From positions 114,348 to 134,347 of the forward strand of contig MU006001.1 in the NCBI GenBank assembly GCA_010093745.1: a DNA stretch of 20,000 bases. Direction: 5' to 3'. The notes under the pieces are model-generated. The model ran no database searches, had not been told where the DNA came from, and worked only from the letters and a program-made list of their open reading frames with translations. This document shows positions 1 to 18,739 of the stretch, piece by piece (within the stretch, counting starts at the first letter, position 1; every line of letters starts with the position of its first letter). Source of the DNA: Piedraia hortae CBS 480.64. Its lineage: Eukaryota. A program made the translations under genes and the position numbers.

Positions 1-2
1 AG

Positions 3-862
3 CTCCAAGTTGAGATAGAGGCTTTCCAGACGTCCCAAGACGTTCAATTGGCTGATTCTTTAGCAGATTTGATGTCCAGAATGCTCAAAGCCAAGGTTGA
101 AGGAAAAGAAGTTTGGTCAGGCAATCGCCTTCTCGAGAAAGTCTACAATATCAGCATTAAGATGAAAGAGCATGGCGTCTTTGATATTCCACACAAGGCC
201 AGTGTATCAACTTCGTGCAGCATTTTGCATCACTGGGACATGTTCCCGCGAAACATCTTGGTCATGCGGCCGAACTCTGATCAAGGCTGGAAGGTAGACA
301 TGGTCATCGATTGGGATAATGTGCGAGCCGTGCCAGCAGTGCTTACGCGGCGACCGCCTTATTGGTTATGGGACCGGACAGATAGGGATAAGATGACCCA
401 CGTCAGAAGCGACGCTAGAGGTCACAGTGACGCTGGTCTTCTTGATCCTTCGCGATATCATCCTGGAAATCGAAGGCTTTCGACCGAAGATCAGCAAATC
501 CGCAGCTATTTTGAGGGGTGGTTAATTCAGGGTCTTGGGAACATCTACAAAAGGTACAAAAAGGATGATTACTATGAGGAGGCCTACGGTAAAGGACGTT
601 GGGTTCGTCGCATCGCACGCTTCACCTTTGAGGAATGGGAGAACGAAAACATACCAATAATTGCGCATCTCGAAGATGATTGGGCAACATTCAAGCGGGG
701 CCATCCGGTCAAGCCCCCAAGGTGACCACTTTGTGGCATACCTGGGCCCTGCAGAATGACAGTAACCGAGGCGTGGCGGAAGAAGATGCTTGGATATGCT
801 GGCCGAACTTCACGAGCCCGAGACAACCTCCCCATACGTTGGAAGTGTTCGAAGATGCGTGA
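3..862 (+). CDS. 3' part of an aminoglycoside-phosphotransferase-like (APH/choline-kinase fold) protein. It is 5'-truncated by the window edge, stops at 725, and has a probable 1-nt frameshift near 715-720 that cuts off a C-terminal tail running to 862.
   Basis: The frame is open from base 3, so the TTG at 48 is not a real start. It contains the Brenner-type motif LHHWDMFPRNILV followed by VIDWD and RRPPYWLW, typical of fungal APH-like kinases. The paralog at 17215-18739 reads aag cct cta aag gtg where this copy has aag ccc cca ag gtg, and similarity continues in the 680..862 frame. Confidence 0.7.
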
Positions 863-1594: not shown

Positions 1595-1709
1595 ATATCC
1601 TGCTCCCAATAACAAGTGGTTGATAACTCTCATCAGTCGTTAACGACTGGTAAGTAACCCAGACTATAACCCCATCTCAAGGGACTTCATTCACTAATGC
1701 GGTGAAAAG
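1595..1709 (+). pseudogene. Relic of a small spliced Cys/His-rich gene (copy C), including intron 1650-1709
   Basis: ISCSQ*QVVDNSH matches the spacing of TSCGKHQLSCFEH in copy A. It has a phase-1 GTAAGT donor at 1650, a CACTAAT branch and an AAG acceptor at 1709. Bases 1650-1700 align ungapped to 13202-13252 at 37/51 (hand count). Confidence 0.55.
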
Positions 1710-2264
1710 TAACGGCAAATACTGTATGGACAGCGTGAGGCTAGCCTGGACGGGAAGAAGTTTACTCCGAACAGGACACATAAAGTACCCCCACCTAAAA
1801 GGAGAGCCGTGTTCTATTAAGCAGCGGCACCTCACAGGTGTGTTAGTATACACGCGTATCTAGAGCTACAAGAAAATCTTTTTGAGTACTTGAACCCTGG
1901 TCAGGGATGTGGGTCATCACCTGCGGATCGCTCCGTGGCGAACTGCACAACAAGCCGTGCCAAAAGTGGAATTAACACATGAAGTTTCTTTGCCAAGAAA
2001 CTTAATTCACCAATGCGTTACAAGGCCCTGGTACCGAAGATGGGGAGCAGAATCTAGGAACAGAGGAGATCGAAAAAGACAACAGCGATAAGTAACTAAG
2101 TCACATCGAGAAAGTCTTTGGATGCGGTACATAGTTTGCTCCAAAAGATCCCCTCCTGCGGCCGGGAAACTGATCAAACGCACCGAGACGTCTCTAATTC
2201 TTTACACAGAAAGTCACCCGGACAGAGCACTACCAAAGCAAGTCAGCAACAAGGTTATCCCAAC

Positions 2265-4049
2265 CTACACCCCCTCCTCCTCCTCCTCTTCTAACGCCCT
2301 TGACCGTGCCAAAGTCCACATATTCTCCATTTTATTCCTTCGCAGAGCATCTCTAGCCTCACCGTCCGTCTCACAAATCTTCGAACCCCATCTCTTGAAG
2401 CCTCTCGTCGCCACACTGCCCTCCCAAATCAACCTACAAACATTTCCGCTCAAATCCTTCATCTTCCCCTCATCATCAACAGGCGAAATCCACTTCGCCG
2501 TCCCCTCCTCCTCCGCATGCGCCACAAAAGTCGTCGACCCGCCCGTCGCGTTCAGGGGTAGGACATTTTCCTCCCACCTGACCCTACTCAGCAGCAACTT
2601 CTTATACTTCTTGATCGAATGCGCACCCCCCTCAACAAGCACGAGGTTCATCTCCGGATTGAGAATCACAATCCCCGTGAGGGCGTTCTGCTTTGCATTG
2701 ATATCGACCAAGTAGCGATGTTTCCCAGAACAGAGGCTTTTTATGGCGAAGACGGCGACGAAGACGCCCTTGGCCTCGTCGGCAGCTTGTTGAGATTGGA
2801 GTTTTGCTGCTCGGGCAGAGGGGGAGAGTTGGCGCTCCGCGTTTGCGGCCTTGTGTTGCTCGGCACGCTGAGCGATTTGTGCGTTGACGAGCGTCTGGAC
2901 GGCAGTGGGGTCTTGTATTGCTAGGTCCCCGTATATGCGCATCATGTTGGATTTCTTCGCCTTCGGCGGTGGGGGTTCAACCAGTCCGAGCCGGATCTTG
3001 GCTTGTTCTTCCTTCATGTCTGCCGTGCGGCGCTGGCGGCGGAGTTTTTTCTGCTCTTTTGTCGTGAGGGGTAGGGGTTTCAACCCGGGCGTGAATTTCT
3101 CTTGAGGCGGTTGGAGAATGACGGGGTGTTGGACTAGAGCCGTGATGATGCTGTCTGGGGTGGTGATTTTGTAGTCCCCCGAGGGGGAGATGAGGCCTTC
3201 GTCCCACCATTCGGTTTCAGGAGGCAAAGGGACAAGGAAGGCTTTGTCGAGCTCGACTTCGATGGCGTGTTTGCGCGCTTCCTCGGCAATGCGAAGTTTC
3301 ATCTGCTCCAGCCGGGCTTGGTCACGGAGCGCTCGCGCCTGCGCTTCGAACTTGCCTTTTTGGTTGAAGACCAACTGCCGCGACTTGCGCTCCCCGGGCT
3401 TCTTGGTGGTTAGGCTGGGGTCATGGTTCTGAGGCTCCGGGTCGGAGTCGGGGATGCTGAGGTAGGGATTTGCGGCTGCCTTGTCGGGCCGGGGTTTCGG
3501 TGCCGTCTTTGGTTTGGGTGCAACATCTCCCAGAAGACTGGGATGGAGCCCTACCGCTAGTCCTCCCCTGGCTGTGTTGCTCTCTTCCGTACGGCGTGGC
3601 GCAAGTCCCAGACGCTGCTGCTTGTCCAGCCGTCGGTTCACCTCTGCCGTTCGCCGCTCCAGCTCTGTTTGTTGCTTCACCGACGGAGATGGAGCAGCCG
3701 CAGCAGGCGCACCTCTGTTCTTCGCCGCGAGTTTCGCTTTGATCTCTTCAATTTGCCTCTGCGCTTTGGCCTTTTTCGATTCCAAGTCATCTTCTGGGGC
3801 TGGGGGTGGGACTGGCGTTGATGCTGAAGGTGGAGGTGGAGCTGATGTTGATGCTGAGGTCGGATCTGGCACTACAGCTGGTGTTGTTGCCTTCTTTGCC
3901 GCAAGTTTTGCCTTGATGGCCTCCATTCTCGCTCTCGTTTCGGCGCGTTTGCGCTCTGCTTCCGCCTCTTCACCGTCAGCCGACCGCAGCCGCTTCGCTT
4001 CTGGCGTTTCGCTATCCATCGGAGGCGGCCGTTTGCTCATGGTCGCCAT
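2265..4049 (-). CDS. PRP3: U4/U6 snRNP splicing factor Prp3 (594 aa, intronless)
   Basis: Prp3 signature segments are present: ETEWWD, ITALVQHP, LTTKEQKKLRRQRR...QAKIRLGLVEPPPPK..KSNMMRIYG, DPTAV, and the C-terminal domain INAKQNALTG...VLVEGG...KKYKKLLLSRVRW...CRLIWEG. The first in-frame ATG is at 4049 (MATMSKRP). Confidence 0.95.
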   Translation of the reverse strand: MATMSKRPPPMDSETPEAKRLRSADGEEAEAERKRAETRARMEAIKAKLAAKKATTPAVVPDPTSASTSAPPPPSASTPVPPPAPEDDLESKKAKAQRQIEEIKAKLAAKNRGAPAAAAPSPSVKQQTELERRTAEVNRRLDKQQRLGLAPRRTEESNTARGGLAVGLHPSLLGDVAPKPKTAPKPRPDKAAANPYLSIPDSDPEPQNHDPSLTTKKPGERKSRQLVFNQKGKFEAQARALRDQARLEQMKLRIAEEARKHAIEVELDKAFLVPLPPETEWWDEGLISPSGDYKITTPDSIITALVQHPVILQPPQEKFTPGLKPLPLTTKEQKKLRRQRRTADMKEEQAKIRLGLVEPPPPKAKKSNMMRIYGDLAIQDPTAVQTLVNAQIAQRAEQHKAANAERQLSPSARAAKLQSQQAADEAKGVFVAVFAIKSLCSGKHRYLVDINAKQNALTGIVILNPEMNLVLVEGGAHSIKKYKKLLLSRVRWEENVLPLNATGGSTTFVAHAEEEGTAKWISPVDDEGKMKDLSGNVCRLIWEGSVATRGFKRWGSKICETDGEARDALRRNKMENMWTLARSRALEEEEEEGV

Positions 4050-4219
4050 GTTGTCGTCAAGGGAGAGGCGGCTTCGGGTGGGCTGACCGGGGTTAGGTTT
4101 GTCAGCCGTTATTACGCTAACCCTACTGTCGCGACTTTCCTGATCTAGACTAGCGTCGCTCACCAACAAAAATTATTCCAGACACCAAACTCTATGCACT
4201 ATTAACGAACCGTCTCGCC
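4050..4219. promoter_or_regulatory. 170-bp bidirectional promoter region shared by PRP3 and RPA190, with an inverted pair of telobox-like motifs
   Basis: Divergent ATGs at 4049 (-) and 4220 (+). GGGTTAGG at 4090-4097, CTAACCCTA at 4117-4125 and the palindrome GTCGCGAC at 4128-4135. Confidence 0.7.
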
Positions 4220-7200
4220 ATGAATGTCAGCCAGCCAGTATCGAGCTATATATCCAGCGTCAAATTCGACTTTCTAACCAACCAAGACGTGCGGGCGCTG
4301 TCGGTGCGGCGGATTGTCACGGGCGAGACGTTCGATACGTTGCTAAACCCGGTGCCCGGTGGGCTATATACGCCCGAACTCGGCCAGTTTGGAGACAATG
4401 CATGCTCGACTTGCGGCCTCATGACACCGCAGTGTCCCGGCCACTGCGGCCACATCCAGATGCCCGTCCTCTGCTACCACCCGACCTTTCTCGACCAGAT
4501 CTACAAACTCCTCCGTGCGGCTTGCCTATTTTGTGGAAAGTTGAGAATGTCCCGCGTCCAGGTGCATCTTCACCTTTGCAAGTTACGGCTAGTGGATTAC
4601 GGACTCTTAAACGAAGTTCAAGGGTTGGATGATATTCTTTTGTCGAGTGCGGAGGGGTCAGAGGACGAAGATGAGAGGAAGGAGGAGGATTCGGCGTGGG
4701 TGATGAAGAGAATGGACAAGTTCCTTGGCCGCGTGGTGCAGCGTGCGCGGGCGAATGGGAGCTTGTTCCCGCCGAAGACTGAGGCTGTGCTGAACGCGAG
4801 AAGAAAGGTCGTGGCCGATTTTCTGGCTGGGATGCTGAAAAGCGCTGTATGTCGCAACTGCGATGCTATCAACCCGGGATATCGTAAGGACCGGTTCGTC
4901 AAGATCTTCCGCAAACCGCTCAAAGAAAAGGATGCGAACAAGAACATTCAGAGAGGCCTCAAGATGAAGGATCCGACTGTAGAGATGCGGAAACAGGTCA
5001 AGATCGGTCGCAAGAGGAAGCGAGATACCGACGAAGCCATCTCAGCCATGGGGTCCACGGCGGAGAGTGAAGAGGAGATGCAGATTGATAGTGGGACTGC
5101 CATAGCGGATGGAGCAGTCGAGAGCAGAATACGCAAAGCAGCCAAGGATCCAGAGGTTTATCTGAACCCGAACAGAGTGCATGCTCAGCTCTCGCTGCTG
5201 TTTGAGCAGGATCAAGATATCCTCGCCGCAGTGTATGGCCACACACGGATAAGGCTGCGTGATCGCCCTCTAACGCCTGACATGTTCTTCCTCAAGGATA
5301 TCTTGGTACCCCCAAACCGGTACAGACCAGAGGCGCGAATGGGCAGCAACCAGCTGGCTGAGTCTCCGGATAACACTTTGTACAAAAACATACTGAAAGC
5401 CTGCGACAACCTGGCTGTTATCCAGCGAGAACTGAGTGGTAAAGACAGCGGTGAGGGGAGACTCCGTCCGAGGACGTACATGGACTTTGAGGCTACTTGG
5501 ATACAGCTGCAGGAAGCGGTGAATTCGCTCATAGATCGTGACCGAAATCCTATACAAGGTGCTGCCGGCCTACGGAATCCAGACGGCATCAAGCAGAAAC
5601 TAGAGAAGAAGGAGGGCATTTTCCGCAAGAATATGATGGGCAAGCGGGTTAACTTCGCCGCCCGCACCGTCATCAGCCCGGATCCCAACATCGAGACCAA
5701 CGAGATTGGCGTTCCGCCCGTTTTCGCCCTCAAACTGACCTATCCCGATCCCGTTACACAGTGGAACGCTGAGGATCTGCAGGAAGCTGTGCGAAATGGG
5801 CCGCTCAAATGGCCTGGTGCAGTTGCCATCGAGAACGAGAATGGGCAGGTCATCCGTCTGGACGGCAAAACCGTCGATGAGCGGCTGGCATTGGCAAATA
5901 ACCTCCTTGCCCCGTCAGTAGACGTGCGTGGGACACGGCCCAAAAAGGTCCATCGACACCTGAACAACGGCGACATTGTCATCATGAACAGACAGCCGAC
6001 GCTGCACAAGCCGTCGATGATGTGCCATCGAGCGCGAGTGCTGCCAGGGGAGAAGACGCTGCGAATGCACTACGCAAACTGCAACACATACAATGCCGAT
6101 TTTGACGGCGACGAGATGAACCTTCACTTTCCGCAAAACGAAATGGCGCGGGCAGAGGCCATGATGATTGCCGATACGGATAACCAATATCTCTCCGGCA
6201 CGGCAGGAAACCCTTTGCGTGGTCTTATTCAGGACCACATCTCAATGAGTGTGTGGCTGACAAACCGCGATACCTACTACGAGCGTAACGACTATATGCA
6301 GCTTCTCTACGCCGCTCTGCGGCCGGAGAACGGCCACTGCTCGACGGGTAAGATTGAGACGGTGCCGCCGGCGGTGATGAAGCCGAAAGCCCTCTGGACG
6401 GGGAAGCAAATCGTCACCAGCGTGCTGCTAAACCTCTTGCCGTGCCATGAAGGCGAGTACATTGGCAGCCTGTCGATGACGGGGAAGAGCACGACGGATC
6501 CAAAGCTCTGGGGTAAGGAAGGCGGCAATGAGGAGGCTGTGGTCATCTTCAAAGATGGATACCTCTGCCAGGGCATCCTTGATAAGAAACAGATTGGCCC
6601 GTCTTCGGGCGGGTTTGTAAACGCCGTGTATGAGCTATACGGGGCTACGGTGGCCGGTCGACTGCTTTCCGTTCTTGGTAGGCTGTTGACGAAGCTGGAG
6701 AGCATGCGTGGCCTCAGCTGCGGTGTGGAAGATTTGGTATTCACGCGAAGGGGCGAGGAAATGCGGCGAGAAGCACTGGCTGAGGCCGAGGTTGCCGGGC
6801 AAAAGGTTGCCGTGAAATACGTGGGTCTCCAAGATGAGAGCCCCTCCAGCGGAGACAAGGAGCTCCGTCGGCGACTGGAAGAGGTCCTACGCGATGGACA
6901 AAAGCAGGCAGCGCTGGACCAGCTGACCAACAACTACACAAAGGACATATCTTCCAAAGTCACAAACAACTGTCTGCCTGACGGCCTCGTGAAGCCGTTT
7001 CCACGCAACCAAATGCAGACCATGACCATGTCTGGTGCCAAAGGAAGCAAGGTCAACGCCAGCCAGATCAGCTGTAATCTCGGGCAGCAAGTTCTGGAAG
7101 GTCTGAGAGTCCCGGTCATGGTATCTGGTAAGACGCTGCCGTGCTTCAGGCCGTTCGAATCGTCAGCTCGAGCTGGCGGGTACATTGTCGACCGCTTTTT

Positions 7201-9298
7201 GACAGGCGTGCGTCCGCAAGAGTTCTTCTTCCACGCCATGGCTGGCCGCGAGGGTCTCATCGATACTGCCGTCAAAACCTCCCGCTCGGGCTACCTCCAG
7301 CGGTGCCTGATCAAAGGCATGGAAGGGCTGAAGGCGGAATACGATGCTTCGGTTCGTGACTCTGCCGGCCTGCTTGTACAGTTTGTCTACGGCGAGGACG
7401 GCCTAGACGTAACCAAGGCCAAGTACCTCACAGACTTCAAATTCACAGCTGAAAACCACGAGACAATCTTCCACTCGTTGGGTGTTGGCGATGACTTCCA
7501 CCGCGTGCGAAACGAAGCAGTGGCGCAACACAACAAGGATGCTGTCAAGAAATTCCGCAAAACGGGCGATCTCGGGGCTTCTGACCCGGCTTTGTCGCTG
7601 TATCCTCCCAGCGAATGCCCCGGCAGCACGAGCGAGCGCTTCTACATGGACACGGCCGAGTACCTGAAGCAGAACCCAGACAAGCTCATCCGGGACCGGA
7701 AGCAGGGCGTCGAGGGGCTCGGCGGGCTTAGCAAAAAGAGCTTCCAGGCTCTGTTGGACGTGCGATACTTCAATTCGGTCATCCAGCCTGGTGAAGCCGT
7801 TGGCGTGGTGGCAGGCCAGTCCATCGGAGAGCCCAGTACGCAGATGACACTCAATACTTTCCATCTAGCAGGTCACTCGGCCAAGAACGTGACACTGGGT
7901 ATCCCGCGTCTGAGAGAGATTCTCATGACGGCCGCCAAGAACATTTCCACGCCGACCATGACGCTGGTGCTGAAGAGAGGAGTCAAGCTGTCAAAGGCTA
8001 GACGCTTTGCCAAGACGCTCAGCCGGCTGAACTTGGCAGAAGTTCTTGATAAAGTGACGGTTAAGGAAGAGCAGGGCCGTGGTGAGATTTACGCCCAGGC
8101 AAAACTCTACCATGTGCAGCTGGACTTTTTCCCCAAAGAAGAATACGAGAAGGAGTATGGTGTGAGTGTGAAGCAGGTCGTGCGTGCCATTGAAGAGCGT
8201 TTCCTACCGGAATTGCAGACTATGGTGCGGAAAGAGCTGAAGAGAAGAGGAGACATGAAATCGTTGAAAGAAGGAGACGACGCCAAAGACGATGCACGGC
8301 CCGAAATTGGCCAGTCTGCAGGCGTCGTCGAGCAACAAGCCAGTCGACGCGAGGGCGAGAGGGACGAGAGAGATGATGCGTCCGACGCCGAAGACGAAGG
8401 CGACGCAACAAGAGCCAAAGCCCTGCAAAACCAGCAACAAGAGGGATACGACGCCTTTGAAGACGACGAAGAGCAGGAGCTGCGGGCTCAGAACCGACGG
8501 GAAGACGAAGTTGACGGAGAAGACGCTCCGCCAGAGCAGCAAGCAGACGAAAGTCTCGAAGAGCGAGTCCGCGCGGCCGAACGGACAAGCGACGTGAGCG
8601 CCATATCCTTTGACGACAACCAGTGCAAATTCACCATGGAATACGGCGCCGAGACGGCCAAGATCCTTATGCTGCACTTTGTAGAAAACGCCGCGCGGTC
8701 AGCCTCTGTGCAGCGGGTGCGTAACATCTCCACCGCCCGCGTCGACGAGGTTGGCATGAACGAGAGCAAAGCGCTCGCCATCTCCGTTGCAGGCTGCAAT
8801 TTGCCCGAAATGTGGACTCATGACGCTGTCCTCGAACTCGATCAGCTCTATACCAACTCTGTGCACGACATCCTTACCCACTATGGCGTTGAAGCCGCGC
8901 GCGCGGCCATTGTACGCGAACTCCGTGCGGTTTTCGACTCACATGGTATTGCCGTCGATCCGCGCCATCTGACCCTCATTGCTGATTTCATGACCCGCGA
9001 TGGCGGCTACCAGGCTTACTCGCGCATGTCATATAGGGATAATCCCAGCGCCTTTATGAAGATGTCATTTGAAACGACGGTGGGGAACCTCAAAGACGCC
9101 CTCCTTGCTGGTGATGCAGATGATCTAAAGAACCCCAGTGCGAGGATTGTGGTGGGGAAGTTGGGCACAGTTGGGACGGGCGGGTTTGACGTTTTGCCTA
9201 TTCATGATAAAATCGCTGCTGAGATGGACGTTGATATGGACGAGCTTGAGACGGAGACGGTGAGAATTGACGGAGAGGATGTACAGTTTACGTATTAA
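4220..9298 (+). CDS. RPA190: DNA-directed RNA polymerase I largest subunit (A190/RPA1), 1692 aa, intronless
   Basis: N-terminal Zn site CSTC...CPGHCGH, GIKQKLEKKEGIFRKNMMGKRVNFAAR, MNRQPTLHKPSMM, catalytic NTYNADFDGDEMN (~6092-6112), bridge helix AGREGLIDTAVKTSRSGYLQRCL and trigger loop EPSTQMTLNTFH..GH.AKNVTLGIPRLREI. The acidic insertion is typical of Pol I. Confidence 0.98.
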   Translation: MNVSQPVSSYISSVKFDFLTNQDVRALSVRRIVTGETFDTLLNPVPGGLYTPELGQFGDNACSTCGLMTPQCPGHCGHIQMPVLCYHPTFLDQIYKLLRAACLFCGKLRMSRVQVHLHLCKLRLVDYGLLNEVQGLDDILLSSAEGSEDEDERKEEDSAWVMKRMDKFLGRVVQRARANGSLFPPKTEAVLNARRKVVADFLAGMLKSAVCRNCDAINPGYRKDRFVKIFRKPLKEKDANKNIQRGLKMKDPTVEMRKQVKIGRKRKRDTDEAISAMGSTAESEEEMQIDSGTAIADGAVESRIRKAAKDPEVYLNPNRVHAQLSLLFEQDQDILAAVYGHTRIRLRDRPLTPDMFFLKDILVPPNRYRPEARMGSNQLAESPDNTLYKNILKACDNLAVIQRELSGKDSGEGRLRPRTYMDFEATWIQLQEAVNSLIDRDRNPIQGAAGLRNPDGIKQKLEKKEGIFRKNMMGKRVNFAARTVISPDPNIETNEIGVPPVFALKLTYPDPVTQWNAEDLQEAVRNGPLKWPGAVAIENENGQVIRLDGKTVDERLALANNLLAPSVDVRGTRPKKVHRHLNNGDIVIMNRQPTLHKPSMMCHRARVLPGEKTLRMHYANCNTYNADFDGDEMNLHFPQNEMARAEAMMIADTDNQYLSGTAGNPLRGLIQDHISMSVWLTNRDTYYERNDYMQLLYAALRPENGHCSTGKIETVPPAVMKPKALWTGKQIVTSVLLNLLPCHEGEYIGSLSMTGKSTTDPKLWGKEGGNEEAVVIFKDGYLCQGILDKKQIGPSSGGFVNAVYELYGATVAGRLLSVLGRLLTKLESMRGLSCGVEDLVFTRRGEEMRREALAEAEVAGQKVAVKYVGLQDESPSSGDKELRRRLEEVLRDGQKQAALDQLTNNYTKDISSKVTNNCLPDGLVKPFPRNQMQTMTMSGAKGSKVNASQISCNLGQQVLEGLRVPVMVSGKTLPCFRPFESSARAGGYIVDRFLTGVRPQEFFFHAMAGREGLIDTAVKTSRSGYLQRCLIKGMEGLKAEYDASVRDSAGLLVQFVYGEDGLDVTKAKYLTDFKFTAENHETIFHSLGVGDDFHRVRNEAVAQHNKDAVKKFRKTGDLGASDPALSLYPPSECPGSTSERFYMDTAEYLKQNPDKLIRDRKQGVEGLGGLSKKSFQALLDVRYFNSVIQPGEAVGVVAGQSIGEPSTQMTLNTFHLAGHSAKNVTLGIPRLREILMTAAKNISTPTMTLVLKRGVKLSKARRFAKTLSRLNLAEVLDKVTVKEEQGRGEIYAQAKLYHVQLDFFPKEEYEKEYGVSVKQVVRAIEERFLPELQTMVRKELKRRGDMKSLKEGDDAKDDARPEIGQSAGVVEQQASRREGERDERDDASDAEDEGDATRAKALQNQQQEGYDAFEDDEEQELRAQNRREDEVDGEDAPPEQQADESLEERVRAAERTSDVSAISFDDNQCKFTMEYGAETAKILMLHFVENAARSASVQRVRNISTARVDEVGMNESKALAISVAGCNLPEMWTHDAVLELDQLYTNSVHDILTHYGVEAARAAIVRELRAVFDSHGIAVDPRHLTLIADFMTRDGGYQAYSRMSYRDNPSAFMKMSFETTVGNLKDALLAGDADDLKNPSARIVVGKLGTVGTGGFDVLPIHDKIAAEMDVDMDELETETVRIDGEDVQFTY

Positions 9299-9419
9299 CT
9301 GGGGTTTATCCATTGTCTGGATACATGTCCGGTCCTTCCCTTTACTCCATCATGTTCTAGACGGCCATATTCACGTACTCACTGTAGGCGAAACTCATCT
9401 TTCGACCCAGTAGCCCCTA

Positions 9420-9677
9420 TCACTTTCTCAACCCCAGCCTTCCCTCTGCAATTTCGCCTTTGAGTGCTCAAGTCCGTTGGCAAGGAGGTTTATCCTGAAT
9501 TGCTTACCATGCGGGCACATGTTTCTTTCATGTACACCATGGTGTGCTCGAAGCAAGAAAGTTGATGCTTGCCGCAGGAAGTTCTGTATCTCCCTCTGCG
9601 CCGGTCATTGTCTCCGAGCGACAGTTGCCGTAACGATCACGATCGGGGCATTGTTCCCAGGTGCTTGAGCAAGCCAT
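9420..9677 (-). pseudogene. Relic of a small spliced Cys/His-rich gene (copy A), frameshifted, with intron 9507-9458
   Basis: A C/A-rich leader ends in aacATG at 9677. It reads MACSSTWEQCPDRDRYGNCRS, then after a frameshift RTSCGKHQLSCFEHTMVYMKE, then after another MCPH-g|GTAAGC. Intron bases 9507-9470 match 13202-13239 ungapped at 28/38, and all 10 mismatches are transitions. Confidence 0.6.
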
Positions 9678-9767
9678 GTTTGGATTCCGAGTAGATTGGG
9701 GGTGCGTTTGTGTGGGAGTTGTGAAGATTGAAAGGGCTCATTAACTCACTTGACGTTTGGAACAGGG

Positions 9768-9809
9768 ATTTATTTATTTTATTTTTTTCATTTTTATTTT
9801 TTTATATTT
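9768..9809. repeat. T-rich low-complexity tract containing TATAAA on the minus strand, ~125 bp upstream of the copy A ATG
   Basis: A run of T stretches separated by single A bases, with only one C, read directly from the sequence. Confidence 0.7.
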
Positions 9810-9920
9810 GGCCTTTCTTACCTCCCTTACAAGTTGTGGACCCAGAGCGGCAATTTTCCTCAAACTTTGGCACACTAAAATGGTGCGTGGGAAGAAAGGC
9901 TTTTTCACTATGAAGGTGAT

Positions 9921-10064
9921 GTCATAACACAAGACTGTCACCCGTTCAAGGTGACTGGTTATGACTTGTGTGGTGGGGAATGGTAGCTAAGAAAGGTGGG
10001 GTTGTTCAGCCCGCGCACTTTCCTTCTCACCAACCCCCACCACGAGTCATAACCTGCCACCTTG
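9921..10064. repeat. Long imperfect inverted repeat (9947-10064) plus a third partial arm (9921-9942)
   Basis: Left arm caaggtgactggttatgacttgtgtggtggggaatggt compared with the reverse complement of the right arm, caaggtggcaggttatgactcgtggtgggggttggt. Inner pairing gggttg/cagccc. GTCATAAC occurs at 9921 (+), 9958-9965 (-) and 10046 (+). Confidence 0.85.
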
Positions 10065-10358
10065 GTCTAGTGGATTGGTAACGGAAAATCGACCGGATCT
10101 GTCGTACATAATGTTGGAAGATAGTTGTTGCGTAGCGCAATCGTTCTGAAGATTGAGTTTTTACAAAGTTGTGTTTTCTGATGTTCAGCAACGAGCTTAT
10201 ATAAGTGGCTTCTTTGTTCAGACAGTCTCAAATATCACTCCATAGCTCCACTGTCCTCTTTATTATGCTCTTTGAGCATTTTGCTATACAAGATTTTTCT
10301 TTGTATAGTCTTTGTTATCGGGCCGAGGTATAGCACTAATACTTCTCAACAACACATA

Positions 10359-10744
10359 ATGTCCTGCTGTGAAGAACATCAGTCCACCAGACTCCTTCAC
10401 AGGTTGTACACCTCGAATTACAAGGTTCTTTTGGTCTCACACGGAACACTCATCTTCGTCTCTCCCGCAAATATGAAAGTCAGCTATAGCCATGCCGACC
10501 ACATTGTGAAACGACAAAATTGAATCCCATCACACAAGATTGCGAACCCAAAAATGACCAAAACGCACAAAACAAACCATCATTGCTCCGGCACGTGGCC
10601 CTCCGGTCGGCCGCGCCGTCCACGCCGTCACGCCCTGATACGGTGAAAGCCCTGCACGCATCCCCTCGCCAACCCCTTTTACTAGTGATTTTGTACAATG
10701 GTCATGTATCTCGAGTGGTGATTCAATATATGAGTAAACTCTGA
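10359..10744 (+). pseudogene. Possible fourth, highly decayed small Cys/His gene (copy D)
   Basis: TATATAA at ~10198, a C/A-rich leader, and ATG reading MSCCEEHQ. The intron-like segment 10591-10649 (GCACGT...CTGAT...AAG, 59 nt) ends ccctgatacggtgaaag, compared with cactaatgcggtgaaaag in copy C (60 nt). The protein motif cannot be cleanly recovered. Confidence 0.25.
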
Positions 10745-10803
10745 ACCTGTAATTCCTTCAGTAGTGGTCCAGTAGTATTGATTCACTGCAGAATCCAAGC
10801 ACA

Positions 10804-12721
10804 TTTACAGTACCGAATAAGGGGCTTCAGGCAGGCCTGGACCGAGTGGTGAGACACTACTTCTTCATGACTGAGTTCACTGCCGAACAGTTTCATTATA
10901 CAGAATTGGTTGAAGGCATGATCAAGTACGCAAAAGCCATCAGATATTCATTGGAACATTATTGGATTGAGGTTGATCATGTAGTGGTGGGTTATTGAAG
11001 AGAAATATGCCTACAATATATCTAAGCCTCACATGGTACAAATAGCTCCCCACTCTTTGTCGATGAGTACGTGTCCAGATCTTCTTGGAGCATACTTTTT
11101 CTAGATAATTGTCAGCAACATGTACGGTCATGAAGTAATTACAAACTACGTCCTGCTCGCCGATTGGGCACGGATATCAACTTGGTGAATTACTGCTTTT
11201 GGACCGATGGTACCAGCAGTTCGGGAGGCTCTCGCTGGGCGCCCATGCAATCACTCTCCATGATTCTGGCCGGCGAAAGTCGCAATGTAAGTCTTTCTGC
11301 CAAACATATTAATAAGTTTTCTCTGACAATCCACTCAACAGGAGAATTTTCACCCTTCCCTTCACTTATTCGTTGCAGCCGGCGACAAAATCAAGGGCAA
11401 TCAGATGATGGACGCCATTAAGGCGGATATGACGCGTCTTCAATGCGGCAAAATGGCCTTCAACCGCAAAGCCAGGTCAAATCGAGTCCTCGTTGGTGGC
11501 CCAGTTACGGGGCAAGTTGACAACCTGGAGGCCTCCAGCCTCTGCAGCCACACGATAAACAGCAAGCTTCCTTGCCGGACCTGCCTCTTTGACAAGCTGC
11601 AGGTGGAATCTTCGCACGATATCATCACATCTGGTACGTCTAGGGTGGTGATTACCGCACGATCATTTCCTCTTGGCCGATGGCACTCGCCACATTCTTC
11701 AGATCCAGAGGGCGACCTTCCGAGGTTAGGCAGTTGCTGCGCTTGCGGTGCGCGGCTGCAAAGCTCACAAAGCTTTTGTATGCCATTCACATCGAAGACA
11801 TCGATCTGTGGTCAATAGCTTTTCGACAGACATCCGAGAACATGATGAGGAGATGGGAAGAGATGTGGGACTTGGACGACATCAGCAAGAAGCTGAAATT
11901 GCATTCGCTTTGCCATATGTCAATGTGGGTTCGGAGATTTGGGCCGGTCATAGGGGCAATGACTGAGACCCAAGAGAGCACCAGCAAGTTTCTTCGACAG
12001 CATACAGAGCATACCAATCAGCAAGCCATCTCTATGGATGTCGGAGAAAGAGGGGTCATCACCTCTGGCGAGCGACACATCGCAGCTGGAGGCTGGTGGT
12101 GTCTCAATGGGACTCGCATGACCCGTGCAGGCGAAGGTGTTGTTAGGCTCTTTAAAACGCCACTGGTCCAGGGCTTCATGGGACTGCCAAACGACCACGG
12201 ACCAGGAACAAGGCGCCTGTGGAGCGTTAGACAAGACCCCACCTCAGCAGTCGATGACGCGCTGGATATCCTCCCTCGTCAGCGTTATGGGGTTCCGTAG
12301 CAGCGCGGTGAATACCGGAAATGCCATCGTCTGAGTGAACCACTGTCCTGCCGCGTTAGATCTTTTGTCAGGCACTTGCTATTGAAGCGCCTTTTTCAGA
12401 GTGAATTACTTCTTGCAAAACTCTCGGCATCATGTGTTGGTTGCACTGCTTAAGGAATTCCAACGATGTACGCCGCGAACCGAAATTGAGAGGGCAATCG
12501 CGTCGGAAGGATACCCTACCTTCGCTTCGAGCCAGCGCTACAGCATCTGTTCCATCCAAGATCTGTCATGTGTCGTGAACGTGCTACATCTGTGTAACAG
12601 TGGCTGAAAAAAGGTCTAGAGGACCACCGTACACCGCATAGAGAGGGATGACAGTGAGTCCCAGTCTTGTAAATGGATCCTCAACATCCATGTGCTGAAT
12701 GCAGCATGGGATGGCAATTAA
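10804..12721 (+). mobile_element. Degenerate DDE DNA-transposase gene (CACTA/Mirage/Chapaev-like), internally deleted, with stops and frameshifts
   Basis: Motifs occur in the expected order: FWTDGTSSSGGSRW (cf. W.DDTSGN.SK.W), VDNLEASSLCSH.....PCRTC (cf. GDNP..SE..SH......CR.C), GGDYRTI (cf. G.DF...), KLKLHSLCHMSMWVRRFGP....TETQES...LR....HTNQQAISMDVG (cf. K.K.H.L.H....IRRFGP....TE.FES.N...R....HSN..APSRDI), and C-terminal CVVNVLHLC...WILN. The family consensus is recalled from memory. Element termini were not identified. Confidence 0.8.
11287..11341 (+). other. 55-nt phase-0 spliceosomal intron inside the transposase relic
   Basis: GTAAGT donor, CTGAC branch and CAG acceptor. Removing it fuses the 11164 frame (...LAGESRN) in frame to ENFHPSLHLFVAA...MMDAIKADM (the 11405 frame). 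Confidence 0.8.
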
Positions 12722-13041
12722 GCTTCTCCAACTTGCTCTTGTTGGATACTTTGTAGCCGCATATCTTTAATTTAATGAGCGTCTGATCAAGGACAATGAG
12801 CTAAAGAAAACCCATGGTGGTAGTCTTCTGCACAGGCTCTTTCACGGGATAAGGTGGGGCTAAGAGATAATTTGGGTATGTGGTAGAGTTCCCAAGTTCT
12901 AAATCACCTTCGCATGACAGCGTAGGATGTATTGACCTTAGAACCGACGGTAAAAGCCACTATACTTGGATTCGTTGGCAGCTCATCATAAGACTGCTGC
13001 CAGAGTAGTGTCCAGACAATATTGTCATAGTAGTCCACTAG

Positions 13042-13443
13042 TGCATCACTACTATACGGGGTTGGCTGTGTAGGGCAATTCTCGCCTGAAAGTGAATATG
13101 GGGATAAGATAAAATCCTTCAAATACTGTGACGAGTATCGGGGCCTTTGCCAGTCACATGGCCTGGCGTACATGAAAAGCACGGTAACACTTGTATATAG
13201 TGTGAGTAGCCCAGGGTAGACCCTCTTGCCAACAGACTTAATTTACTAATGCATTTGAGGGTGACTGAGAGGCTTAAAGAGCAGCCCAAAAAGGAGGAAT
13301 AGGCCAAGGAGGCGGAGCAAGCAATCATGGCTCAAGAAGGCAGAACGGATCAGTACGACAATTTCGCGAGGGCCAAGTCAAAGGGAAAAAATCCAACTAC
13401 AGAGAGAAGCGATAGCGGTCTATGTAGTGGTTCACTGCAATAG
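13042..13443 (+). pseudogene. Relic of a small spliced Cys/His-rich gene with a K/E-rich tail (copy B), intron ~13202-13259
   Basis: KYCDEYRGLCQSHGLAYMKS (13121-13180), then after a frameshift TCI*-t|GTGAGT, a TACTAAT branch, and VTERLKEQPKKEE*AKEAEQAIMAQE. The intron is homologous to those of copies A and C. Confidence 0.6.
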
Positions 13444-13924: not shown

Positions 13925-15262
13925 CTAACCAGCCCTCTTCTTCTTTCCCTGTCCCTCGCCCTCCCCGTCCTCTTCGGCCTTCCTCTTTCCACCCGTCGAT
14001 GCCACAGCCTCCTTCCTCTTCACCAACCCCGAAACATCCTTCGCGGAGGCCACAACGTCTTCAAGTCCCTTCCCTTTCAACAACTCACCCAACAAGTCTT
14101 TCACCTCTTCCTCCTCCACTTTGGGGGCATCAACCGGCCTCCTTAATTCTGCAAGACGGAGCTTCATCTCAGCAATAATCTCCTTAATTTCAGTAACTTC
14201 CTTTGAAGCCACCCCCTTCTGAGCAAGGAGCGAAGACAGATGCATTTCCGACGAACGAATGGCAAGCGAGATTTGCTCTGCGGCCTTGCTGCGGAGGACC
14301 TTTTTCTCGGGAAGAGTGACGCCACTGCCGTTCTCCGTGTTTGCGGTTTTTCCACCTTCAGCGGGTTTGGCGTTAGCATCCCCCGAGTTGTGATGGTCCT
14401 GTGTGGTTGTTTCTTTTCCCTCCTGCTCCGAAGGTATTAAAGAAGCAAACTCCAAGGCAAGCGCAAGTTTAAAGTGCGCTTCTGCAACGAGGCGACTACT
14501 TTGCGGGTAGAGATTTTTCTTGAGGGCGAGCGCTTTAGTCGCGTCATTAACTGCATCGTGGAAGCGTTCATTCTCGAGCGAGATCTCGGCTTGGATGTCG
14601 TGGATTTCGGAAAGGTGCTCTTTGATCGTTTGCCCTTGGGATTTGGAGGTGGAGCTGTCTTTTCCATCTGCGTCTCGAGCTGCATTGGTGGAACCCTCGT
14701 CCTTGGTGGTATCCTGCTTCATACCCGTACCATTCGACTCTCCCTTTGCGGTGGAGCCCTGTTTCGCATCCACATCACTAGTCTCGTTAAGTTCACCAAG
14801 CCTCCTCTCAAACAGCACCCTCGCCAGATCTAGGACCTCCCACGCAATCGCGAAATCATCATCCTCTTCTTCTTCTTCTTCCTCCTCCTGTCCCTCTTCC
14901 TCCTCAGACGCACTCTCCACATCATCATTCGTAATCTGAATCAGCCTACCGGACGCCGGGGGATGACTACCCGCCGATTTCCTAGCGGCCGAAGGCGCCC
15001 CATTAGCCGCCCCTGAGGGTTTACTCGCCGCCCCACCGCCCAGTACATCCGACTTCCCGACCGCTACTTGAAACAAACTCTTGCCGTAGCGAAAGAGTAG
15101 CTCCGCGTTCGCGGGGTTCATCTCTCCGTTGATCTCATCTTGTAGCGCGACGGCTTCGCTGTACAGTTCCGTCGCCGCGGCGTGGTTTTTGAGACTGGAC
15201 TGGTGCGCGGCACGGGTGGTTAGGTTGGCGAGTTTGGATTGGTTTTCCGTTGAGGACGCCAT
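13925..15262 (-). CDS. NASP/Sim3/Hif1-family histone chaperone (SHNi-TPR), 445 aa, intronless
   Basis: TPR1 (ATELYSEAV...GEMNPANAELLFRYGKSLFQVA), an acidic patch interrupting TPR2 followed by DDDFAIAWEVLDLARVLF, the SHNi-TPR segment EIHDIQAEISLENERFHDAV, AEAHFKLALALEF, and a C-terminal DVSGLVKRK plus basic NLS-like end. Confidence 0.93.
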   Translation of the reverse strand: MASSTENQSKLANLTTRAAHQSSLKNHAAATELYSEAVALQDEINGEMNPANAELLFRYGKSLFQVAVGKSDVLGGGAASKPSGAANGAPSAARKSAGSHPPASGRLIQITNDDVESASEEEEGQEEEEEEEEDDDFAIAWEVLDLARVLFERRLGELNETSDVDAKQGSTAKGESNGTGMKQDTTKDEGSTNAARDADGKDSSTSKSQGQTIKEHLSEIHDIQAEISLENERFHDAVNDATKALALKKNLYPQSSRLVAEAHFKLALALEFASLIPSEQEGKETTTQDHHNSGDANAKPAEGGKTANTENGSGVTLPEKKVLRSKAAEQISLAIRSSEMHLSSLLAQKGVASKEVTEIKEIIAEMKLRLAELRRPVDAPKVEEEEVKDLLGELLKGKGLEDVVASAKDVSGLVKRKEAVASTGGKRKAEEDGEGEGQGKKKRAG

Positions 15263-15302
15263 TGTTCGTGGAGGAGGAGGCGATGCGATTGCGATCAGGC
15301 GG

Positions 15303-15321
15303 CGACGCGACGCGACGCGAC
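15303..15321. promoter_or_regulatory. (CGACG)n repeat giving three tandem ACGCGA MCB-like elements just upstream of the NASP-like gene
   Basis: cgacgcgacgcgacgcgac lies 41-59 bp upstream of the ATG at 15262. MCB function is inferred from the ACGCG core only. Confidence 0.45.
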
Positions 15322-16128
15322 CGGGTTAAAGTGAGCTAGAATGCATTGGGATTAGCGTGCCAAGATACCCCGCGCTCTCCACACAAATGATCTTCGAGAA
15401 TTTACGGACTCTGCGGGGAATATAGATGGATGACTACCACCGTCTCTGAGCGTACACTGAGTGATAGTTCCGACGGGTCGTTATCGCGCTGCGGAGATGT
15501 AATGGAGGTGCTGGCCCTTATCGATGGCCAGGCACTTAGGAAAGGCTGGCATTCTCCTACATGTGAATGCAATTGGGAAGCAGCCGTTTATGTGACATAT
15601 CTCGAAGAACAAGGATCGGTGCCCCTGACTAGGTTGTGAGAGTACTTGATTGCGTATATTCCACACAATCGGTTGTACCACACAACCAGTCGATCCAACG
15701 ATAAGGAAACGTGTTAACCGGCATCAAAAACCGACGCCCCGTACGCTACCGAACCAGAAAGAACGATTGCCGAAGGGCACATTTCCATGTGCTGTGAAGG
15801 TGCAGTGGACCTGAAGCTGCTAGACAACGAACGGGGATAGAGCCATCCACACAAAGCGAGCTTATTACGCTCTTACATGCAGAAAGCACATGCTGTGGTG
15901 GACCCGTATAAAAGGCTGAGGTATTGCGAGTGTGCAAAAGATGGTGACCAAAGAAAATACAGAGCTAAGGTCACCTAGTTTTAATCCAAGATCGCAAGAC
16001 AATGAACGCCGGTGGCAATTTTCCCAGACGGTCCGATGGGTCGCATTTATATACGGTCGCGCGACCGAGCAGCGCAGACACTGCCATAATTTGCCTTTGG
16101 ATTAGTTATGACCAGATAGAAGGTTTGA

Positions 16129-16653: not shown

Positions 16654-17214
16654 GTGTTTCAATCGGTTGGTACTTGTAGAGGGCAAGGATGCGCTTACGC
16701 TTGCATGACACTATCTAAAAGCGCTTCATGTGGGCCACGCGCTTGCCTGTGACAGCGTAGCCGTACGTTGATAAGTGCCAAATACCAGAATGATCGGCTG
16801 AAGCAGGGTTTGTGCATGCATAGCCGCCTTTCGCCATGATGGGCTATCAACCGCTCCGCTAACCGCCTTGTCTTGTGATTGGCTAACAGTATGCGGCAAA
16901 AAGCCGCCGACTTGATGTATTGTAGTTGTATACCTGTTGTGCGGTCTTCAATAAATTGACAAGAGGTTGCATGGTTGTCGAAGATTTATAGCACTCTTGG
17001 CCTGAATTCCTCCCCGTAAAGCCTAGAACTGTCATGTCGCATCAATATGTGGACCACAACTAGGAAGTAGTAGCACTTGCAAGCCATTGCAAGCCATTGC
17101 CTGCCACGCCTGCCCTGGCACTTCTCTTAGGCTTTTGGTGTGGGCCATGGTACTTCGCTCCCGACATCCCCAACACCTCTGATCCCTACAGACCCCCTAG
17201 ACTGCTGGAATAAC

Positions 17215-18739
17215 ATGGCCACGAGCTTCACAAAGCACTTGGAAGGGCAAATCACGCGATCAGGGCCTGGCGCCCCCAAATCTCGCAGCTCCTCCACTAG
17301 CACGGTCAGGTACAGGGGCCACGAGCCGTCTGAGACGCTCCAGGACAATATCCGGACCCTCACGGAGAGCATCGGAGCATTCGAAGACATATCGCTGCTG
17401 CATCACAAGGGAGGGGGCTATAACCGAATGATCGTTGTCCATTTAAATAAAAGCGGCCAGGTTATTAAAGAAATTTATTGCATTACACGGTTCACGGAAA
17501 CGCCAAGCGACATGTCAGTACGTGAAAAGTGTCTTGAATACGAGTATCAGGATCTAGTGACAGTGCTGGTAAGGCATGACATGCCTGGGCCCAATCTCCT
17601 CGCGTTTGACGAAAGCAGGGAAAACCCATTGAACTGTCGCTATATCTTTACCCGAATATTTCCCCAGCATTTGCCTTGAAGATGTTTACGCCAAGATGAC
17701 TCTTTCCGAAAGATTTATCGTCGACGGTGTTATGGAGTTCCTGCTCCCTGCGGAGCGTGTTGAGTTTCCTTGTACCGGCATAATGTGTGCATCCAGACAG
17801 CCCAATACCGCGATTAAGGCCTCATCCTTTCTTGAAGCCAATTTTCCCAAGCTCAGGGCTGACTAAATGCTTTTGAAACTCCTCGGGACTTTGAAATGGT
17901 GGAATCGTTCGCAGATTTGATGTCCAGCATGCTGAATGCTCAGGTCGGGTGGGGGGGATGTTGGTGGGCCCACTCCCTTGCTGAAGAATCTCTACAAGAT
18001 TAGCTTTGAGATGAAATAGCATGCCATCTTTGACTTCCGGCACAAGGCCAGTGTATCGACCTCAAACAGCATCCTGTACCATTGGAACCTGTTTCCTAGA
18101 AACGTCTTAGTTGTGCGAGCGGCTTCCCAACAAGAATGGAAAATTGACACGATCATCGACTGGGACGAGGTGCGAGCTGTACCTGCGGAGCTTGCGCGGC
18201 GGTCGCTCCCTTAGTTGTGGTACCTGACAGATTACGACAAGATGGCCCATGTCGGAAGCGACTTCGTTGCTCACACTGACGCTGATCTACGTAATCCTTC
18301 ATGATATGACGCTGGAAACGGAGGACTTTCGTCTGACGATCAGCAGGTCCGCAGTCGCTATAAGGGGGGGCTCATTCAAGGCCTTGGCAGCATCTACGAG
18401 GGATACAGCAGGAATGATTCCTATGAAGAAGCATATGGCAAAGGACGTTGGATTCGCCGCCTTTCATGCTTCGACACTGAGGACGATTTGGGCAATGAGT
18501 GTGTACCAATGTTTACGCATCTCGAAGACGACTGAGAAACATTCAAGCGGGGACATCCGGTCAAGCCTCTAAAGGTGGCCCCTTTTTGGTATGCCCGGGT
18601 CCTGCAAAATGACAGTTATCGAGGCTTGGCGGAAGGAGATGTTTGGGCATGCTGGGTGAATTCATCGAGCTCGGGACAACTTTCCCTTACATTTGAGGTA
18701 ATCAAAATGTGTTTAGAATATCATTGCTATGCTATCTAG
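17215..18739 (+). pseudogene. Full-length APH-like phosphotransferase pseudogene, paralog of the gene at 3-862
   Basis: The N-lobe has KGGGYNRMIVV and PGPNLLAFDESRENPLNCRY. From ~17850 it is colinear with window base 1 onward. There are frameshifts near 17655, 17865 and 17955, stops at 18017, 18212 and 18533, and the catalytic HWD is changed to HWN (18080-18088). Confidence 0.85.

Follow-up and report, generated by a model that had tools for sequence, protein, structure and literature searches.

What links three widely separated, intron-like strings in the spacers between housekeeping genes of a compact fungal genome? The strings lie in a 20,000-nt stretch of Piedraia hortae CBS 480.64 (contig MU006001.1, positions 114,348 to 134,347 of the forward strand; G000:C45:114348-134347, where G000 is the studied genome, of 16.9 Mb in 132 contigs), referred to below, at its full length, as the window. 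A first-pass annotation had taken them for introns of three decayed copies (A, B and C) of a local family of small Cys/His genes. Our analysis makes it likely that these copies, together with a probable fourth relic, D, are unprocessed pseudogenes belonging to a Pezizomycotina family, so far unnamed, of small proteins predicted to bind zinc; a function and a history are proposed for it below. The copies are homologous, share one gene anatomy, were formerly under purifying selection at the protein level and are now decayed; those in the window are ordinary pseudogenes. What is new is an unnamed, probably zinc-binding microprotein domain found across six classes of filamentous ascomycetes, with a profile and ligand assignments that can be tested. 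The 'empty' spacers of this compact genome are home to relics of a once-expanded gene family.

An intron shared by the window copies

The introns are located at 9458..9507 (-) in copy A (a 50-nt relic that has lost its branch site relative to copy G, described below), at 13202..13259 (+) in copy B (58 nt) and at 1650..1709 (+) in copy C (60 nt, with donor, branch site and acceptor all present). The three strings were recovered where they had been reported, and the counts given for them were reproduced: A and B are identical at 28/38 positions, all ten differences (10/10) being transitions, and B and C at 37/51; the remaining pair, A/C, is identical at 26/38. Since these matches are weak alone in a self-comparison of the window (E 0.34 and 1.2), a null was built from the same genome, using intron strings predicted by consensus rather than annotated introns. 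Among 15 such strings (105 pairs) the best identity outside the donor was 13/32, versus 21-24/32 for A, B and C. With 33 other intron-like strings drawn from 729 kb of the genome and aligned with gaps (528 pairs), the best null score was 22.5, versus 41 for A/B and 32 for both A/C and B/C. In this test, set beforehand against random short introns, A/B and B/C exceeded all 528 null pairs. The C intron was also retrieved, at E 0.0026 in 749 kb of the genome, by a profile built without it. Across the family, introns are 54-60 nt long and identity between copies ranges from 55% up to 76-78%.

In copies A and B, what remains is a two-exon gene broken by frameshifts. Exon 1 of A (9508..9677, -) carries two frameshifts and matches copy G at about 74% of positions over 230 nt; the relic of exon 2 is short (9420..9457, -). 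In B, exon 1 (13044..13201, +) contains a stop, frameshifts and several altered ligand codons, and exon 2 (13260..13443, +) encodes a charged tail with an internal stop. The Cys/His peptides read upstream of the intron by the first-pass annotation hold for A and B, both of which are ranked by the family profile, but not for C. The exon proposed for C (1595..1649, +) gave no match above shuffles when compared with seven other exon stretches and was missed by protein and DNA profiles (213 kb and 749 kb searched); it is at most a heavily decayed exon end.

An exon-1-like remnant that had been overlooked lies downstream of the C intron and is assigned to a probable copy D. This probable fourth relic (1710-2095) adjoins C and is split by a 143-nt repeat. 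Its decayed exon 1 (1710..1809, +), with stops and frameshifts, begins right at the acceptor of C and is interrupted at 1810..1952 (+) by a dispersed TG...CA repeat resembling a solo long terminal repeat (LTR), with a 5-nt target-site duplication and full copies in stretches L049, L050 and L116 (identity 92-94%). Exon 1 ends at 1953..1967 (+) with a C-x2-C motif, the last Cys codon of which is split in phase 1; after a 57-nt intron relic with a decayed donor (1968..2024, +), exon 2 (2025..2095, +) completes this codon with its first two bases and continues as an open acidic tail. Exon 1 of D was the sole match of a family motif, defined post hoc, in a six-frame translation of 749 kb. The intron relic is identical to B at 25/30 positions over its 3' half and was scored by profile at E 0.0012 in a smaller search and at E 3 in the larger, 749-kb one. 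That the end of the C intron is the start of the D exon suggests a partial tandem duplication or a gene with two repeats.

Further copies in the genome

Genome-wide, a degenerate intron pattern matched four times, versus none in the control; the matches are A, B and C plus one additional copy, E (contig C17). The exon of E led to copy F (contig C25), whose 59-residue domain is open, whose donor cuts the last Cys codon in phase 1 and whose second exon is charged. F thus provides an open member with the spacing predicted for the ancestral Cys/His protein and its charged tail. A codon pattern scan (12 matches) yielded copies G (contig C78) and H (contig C5). In three pattern scans 7/12, 4/6 and 12/14 matches were discarded as chance (control counts 4, 5 and 10, respectively).

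A profile was then made of 40 proteins from outside this genome, excluding P0010 (no motif), P0012 (same cluster as P0002), P0001 (the genome's own) and P0005 (no HHC). In 213 kb its top matches were F, E, G, A, H and B, with weak scores for A and B (E 0.009 and 0.14). In 618 kb it revealed two new copies, I (contig C6, E 4e-7) and J (contig C9, E 2e-5), alongside F (5.5e-16), E (0.0045), G (0.007) and A (0.03); H (0.2) and B (0.4) scored weakly, and C and D were not found in this search. Searches of the genome with the B exon, the F exon or B DNA returned self-matches only.

The family is therefore not local, as had been supposed: the ten copies on seven contigs, six of them beyond the window on other contigs, are a lower bound, and relatives occur in six Pezizomycotina classes. 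One of 39 random 10-kb stretches holds a copy, from which a genome-wide number of about 43 (95% range 1-242) is extrapolated. An unbroken domain was seen only in F; J has one nonsense codon within the domain.

Several repeats and relics were observed around these copies. An LTR-like insert of 421 nt, partly read as N and accompanied by a 5-nt duplication, lies in the intron of F (stretch L022). The corresponding solo-LTR-like family (about 370 nt) is also found in L046, L061, L086, L088, L097, L103, L116 and L117; it occurs in 6/39 random stretches and has very deep coverage in sequencing run X1. Upstream of I, a frame at L086:9133-9516 (-) contains further Cys/His-spaced stretches, perhaps extra decayed repeats. 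Downstream of E (L006 / L018), adjoining RRP4, a decayed PIF/Harbinger-like transposase was recognized by eye; the pieces tested gave no Pfam match.

Relatives in other fungi and the predicted domain

When the P. hortae copies were made into a profile, 11 proteins among 1.84e9 representatives scored at E <=0.001; one of these was F itself, and another had no motif. Iterated searches returned family members as 13/215 and 33/672 candidates. About 40 relatives with the Cys/His spacing were thus found elsewhere, as the idea of an ancestral protein had implied. They belong to the Dothideo-, Eurotio-, Sordario-, Leotio-, Lecanoro- and Arthoniomycetes, and all named ones are 'hypothetical'; records include Aureobasidium melanogenum KAG9664309.1 and KAH0349136.1 and entries from Daldinia, Aspergillus californicus, Botrytis tulipae, Physcia and Alyxoria. 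One relative filed under a plant probably stems from a fungal contig. These proteins resemble the P. hortae copies in the N-terminal motif, the ligand spacing, the charged tail or repeats and the predicted intron near the domain end. However, they look intact, and the intron is in phase 2 in loci L042-L045, whereas P. hortae has at least 10 copies, nearly all of them dead.

The family consensus reads MP..(T)HHCP..GNC..YC-x2-HQ-x2-C-x2-H..L-x2-E-x-C-x2-C, after which comes either a charged tail or additional repeats; a wider motif for exon 1 (about 50 residues) is MP..(T)HHCP..GNC..YC-x2-H-x3-C-x2-[HC]..L-x2-E-x-C-x2-[CH]. Five Cys/His columns are invariant in 40/40 proteins, and two other ligand positions swap Cys and His (26 H/C, 6 C/C, 6 C/H and 4 unparsed; n=42). 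Conserved residues other than ligands are HH, P, GN, R and Y. More than one domain repeat was counted by eye in 8/42 relatives. Cys/His interchange is the usual sign of metal ligands; the invariant columns and the swaps together argue for this role, and as eight ligands fit two zinc sites, the domain is predicted to bind two zinc ions, through C/C/C/H and then C/[HC]/C/[CH]. Net charge was +7 to +14 in 9/9 single-domain members checked. Because the protein is basic, with Lys/Arg-rich tails, we give an even chance to its being intracellular and either binding nucleic acid or acting as a small nuclear adaptor. N-termini in 9/9 members, judged by eye without a predictor, are polar and basic rather than hydrophobic, in agreement with the first-pass view that a signal peptide is not evident.

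Nor could a named domain be recognized, then or now. Pfam had no family matching more than two of 42 members at E 0.1, NCBIfam had none for four members and the Protein Data Bank (PDB) none by sequence; the best scores in the ESM Atlas (0.82 and 0.78) are leads only. The AlphaFold2 model of 59 residues has four short strands, with predicted beta-hairpins (predicted local distance difference test, pLDDT, 75.7; predicted template modelling score, pTM, 0.50). As a fold query, weak at this pTM, it gave best Foldseek E values of 1.7 (PDB) and 1.1 (BFVD), and 0/48,161 chains reached Z >=2. Two Pfam candidates were rejected: the heavy-metal binding domain HMBD (PF19335), matched by F only at 16.9 versus a cut-off of 23.6 bits, and zf-TRM13_CCCH (PF11722), matched by 1/42 members at 14.4 versus 20.9 bits (E 0.029). 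TRM13-like CCCH fingers have the spacing C-x(6-9)-C-x(8-13)-C-x2-H. The TRM13 finger has a similar C/C/C/H order of the first four ligands; here, however, they are joined to a second site, C/[HC]/C/[CH], and the whole forms a stand-alone microprotein. Literature searches, with subscription papers and bioRxiv supplements outside their coverage, returned no paper on the family or on such an intron, and none of the similar-sounding microprotein families in the literature could be tied to it.

Small secreted cysteine-rich effectors are birth-and-death families of small fungal genes. Like the present family, they have many dispersed, diverged and mostly pseudogenised copies in repeat-rich spacers; unlike them, the proteins described here have no signal peptide by inspection, and their Cys/His swaps suggest metal ligands rather than disulfides.

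Gene anatomy and splice phase

As we reconstruct it, exon 1 would encode the domain of about 50 residues and be followed by an intron of about 55 nt at the last cysteine and then by a variable charged tail. The donor lies 73 nt past the YC cysteine codon, in phase 1, in F, E, I and J, and 118 nt past it, also in phase 1, in H; the distances in A, B and G (69, 75 and 74 nt) reflect frameshifts. Read in frame with their Cys/His peptides, A and B have donors in phase 0; the phase 1 originally read for them needs a frameshift in each and is the phase found in paralogues F, E, I and J. The introns of I and J are canonical (55 and 54 nt). Among the eight copies with a recognisable acceptor, five (A, D, F, I and J) have an exon 2 that begins with GC or GT, completing the Cys codon. 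An in-frame stop is present one codon past the donor in 7/9 copies, the exceptions being A and G.

In the metagenome loci L042-L045 (two near-identical and two close relatives, about two lineages) the donor is 2-5 nt past the last Cys position, in phase 2, and exon 2 is charged, in 4/4; the intron following the domain is 52 nt in L042 and 48 nt in L043. Daldinia protein models that read through the intron suggest phase 0 there. The split between domain and tail therefore appears to be family-wide and the exact intron phase is not: of the position and phase expected in homologs, a predicted intron at the domain end was found and the phase was not. Public models P0036, P0037, P0025, P0028, P0039 and P0042 likewise appear to read through an intron that follows the last Cys, with offsets that vary slightly. 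Gene callers often garble the family, several public models running through the intron.

Splicing of the family intron is predicted from sequence. Among the sequencing runs listed, none was registered as RNA. In a sequencing run guessed to be RNA, examined at F rather than at the window junctions, exon 1 of F is covered at low depth and 37 nt across the donor are unspliced. This read-through fits the annotated 59-residue form, pre-mRNA or DNA.

Past selection, spread and decay

Comparison of copies points to former function. For I and J the nonsynonymous divergence (dN) is 0.50 and silent sites are saturated (synonymous divergence, dS, about 3), with dN/dS about 0.17; for A and G, dN is 0.24 and dS 0.68 (dN/dS about 0.35). 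As dN is below dS in both pairs, these copies were once functional. Retrocopying (processed pseudogenes) was rejected, the intron or its relic being present in the copies examined. Because introns were kept, the copies presumably arose at the DNA level. Repeat-induced point mutation left no consistent signature in nine regions. The history we propose is that copies spread by DNA-level duplication into repeat-rich spacers, would have stayed functional for as long as silent sites took to saturate and may then have died in a gene-poor lineage. Of 101 Dothideomycetes, P. hortae is reported to have the smallest assembly and the lowest gene count, 7,572 (PMC7082219), which serves here as context only.

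A number of observations weigh against this interpretation. The upstream exon of C is unsupported, and D is weak by profile (E 0.77 only with a combined profile). The introns of I and J resemble those of A, B, C and E weakly, eight pair scores of 8.5-21.5 lying inside the null. Freed of its insert, the intron of F is not significantly like the family intron (mean 11.7, null maximum 15.4); given this and the insert, F itself may be impaired. In its public model F has the unspliced form of 59 residues, and the run guessed to be RNA had no joint and no cover of exon 2 at F, which is no evidence either way. Intron phase in other fungi differs from that in P. hortae, no fold match backs the predicted zinc or nucleic-acid binding, and the comparison of intron with silent sites described next comprises nine four-fold sites from one pair.

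Conservation of the intron relative to silent sites

Unexpectedly, the intron has changed less than silent coding positions in I and J, two copies whose discovery did not involve it. It is identical at 41/54 positions between them, or 28/38 without splice signals, whereas four-fold sites are identical at 1/9 (Fisher p 0.001); among identical residues, 7/21 are unchanged (p 0.005). Exon 2 and the 100 nt upstream could not be aligned. Pairs A/G (intron 42/54, four-fold sites 3/8) and B/C (intron 39/59, exon not alignable) point in the same direction; in L042/L043, a close pair from outside the genome, the contrast is small (intron 42/48, four-fold sites 9/12). Positive selection on exon 1 was rejected as the cause of the contrast, since the silent sites are the saturated ones. 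No common RNA structure was found for seven introns (0 pairs).

In 7/9 copies, intron retention would give the whole domain with a stop one codon past the last Cys and no tail. Because of this, the intron might have been kept by selection as a splicing switch for the tail, a suggestion we put forward as possible but doubtful. Early intronic stops are common for other reasons too. More generally, it is rather unlikely that the intron of about 55 nt was itself selected, whether as such a switch, possibly read by the family's own protein, or through being copied between paralogues; if true, this would explain how it outlasted silent sites, exon 2 and flanks. A special role is weakened by the small test and by the F intron, which is without the motif. 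Should the contrast hold over more pairs, it would suggest that the intron has a cis-regulatory role or that an ordinary short intron has passed from one paralogue to another.

A second non-coding block is common to I and J; it lies upstream, is 78% identical over 73 nt and is present at two further sites, neither with a detected gene (L086:9569-9640 (-), L088:8296-8367 (+), L096:6702-6774 (+) and L082:6827-6948 (+) in all). It resembles a branch site, an acceptor, an 11-nt micro-exon and a donor. Given this block, conserved islands may be a wider feature of the relics.

Alternative explanations

The gene could have been an accessory passenger of a transposable element and have spread with it. 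A Gypsy-type gag-pol lies 1.7 kb from I, solo-LTR-like repeats lie within 2 kb of F, G, I and J, transposase-like relics stand beside A/B and E (by eye; no Pfam match at cut-off), and the upstream block of I and J recurs where no gene was detected. Yet no paired LTRs or inverted ends surround I or J, the flanks of A and B are unalignable beyond the intron, the same LTR-like repeat is met in random stretches at the frequency given above, and a long transposase frame was present at 0/4 outside loci within the DNA examined; past purifying selection, moreover, suits host genes equally. We consider such a passenger unlikely. The proposal that A and B are themselves transposon ends (terminal inverted repeats round the relic at 11134-12300) was rejected, only a 28-nt intron match being found between them in the self-comparison. 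An improbable variant of the conflict theme pairs the gene, as the small member, with an APH-type kinase in a conflict or self/non-self module. At L042 an APH-family kinase (Pfam E 2.7e-14) precedes the family gene by about 420 nt on the same strand, and a homologous kinase (E 5e-14) precedes C/D in the window, likewise on their strand. A further kinase relic lies about 4 kb from copy I, and in L044/L045 the family gene and a TPR protein of 693-713 residues, HET/TIR-like by eye in its C-terminal part, are arranged tail to tail. Against this, L042 is one outside locus only, none of the 13 kinase matches in the genome accompanies E, F, G, H or J, and a copy was found in 1/8 stretches around kinase loci outside the window versus 1/39 random ones, a difference that is not significant. 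The first-pass label of a conflict-type or element-dispersed family survives as a hint only; no element boundaries were seen round any copy.

Other alternatives concern the protein and the shared sequence. That the protein was a metallothionein-like metal buffer rather than a folded module binding nucleic acid or protein would suit its small size, its Cys/His richness, its often tandem repeats and the fact that HMBD is the best Pfam match of F, albeit below cut-off. We nevertheless judge it quite unlikely, the fixed ligand spacing, conserved non-ligand residues, predicted beta-hairpins and basic tails being better suited to a folded finger. A mobile, introner-like intron that entered already diverged paralogues, or was converted between them, is highly improbable. 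It would account for the intron being the part preserved best, and would accommodate the I/J intron lying between an exon 2 and a near upstream flank that cannot be aligned, silent differences that reach right to the donor, and C with no detectable exon, and such elements exist in Dothideomycetes (PMC4457414). However, the 4/4 genome-wide pattern matches and all significant profile matches (749 kb, about 4% of the genome) are family loci with one homologous site, and the introns show no near-identical copies, ordinary length and no consensus structure. Introner-like elements are likewise recognisable as a repeated spliceosomal intron, but are described as near-identical, longer than regular introns of 50-55 nt and in unrelated genes, in contrast to the 54-60 nt, one site and one family here (PMC4457414). 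We attach very little credence to the idea that the sequence is a conserved 3' untranslated element behind the stop codon. Unspliced reading does give the whole domain and a stop in 7/9 copies, and F is both annotated and seen unspliced; but there are canonical branch sites with acceptors at 54-60 nt, exon 2 completes the Cys codon in 5/8 copies, charged tails are open in D, F and J, and other fungi have spliced models bearing the tail (e.g., P0023, versus read-through P0036). Relics of a two-exon zinc-finger-like gene, duplicated as DNA, thus remain the preferred interpretation.

Neighbouring genes and repeats

The relics sit in the spacers between three window genes: PRP3 (2265-4172, -), a gene for the largest RNA polymerase I-type subunit (4154-9298, +) and a SHNi-TPR gene (13925-15325, -). 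APH-type kinase paralogues are found at 1-725 (+), continuing upstream in L016, and at 17131-18700 (+), with 73% identity over 814 nt; the former is an open 565-codon frame and the latter is broken. Genome-wide, the 13 kinase matches fall at about 10 loci and mostly bear stops. Rfam had no match reaching the gathering score in the window and three loci. Between A and B, at 11134-12300 (+), lies a decayed transposase-like gene with a paralogous relic in stretch L109; no Pfam or NCBIfam match reached cut-off, and it presumably resembles Plavaka/CACTA-type open reading frames. A solo-LTR-like repeat with the ends TGTTG...CAACA occupies 10112-10350 and is 87-88% identical to copies in L062 and L121.

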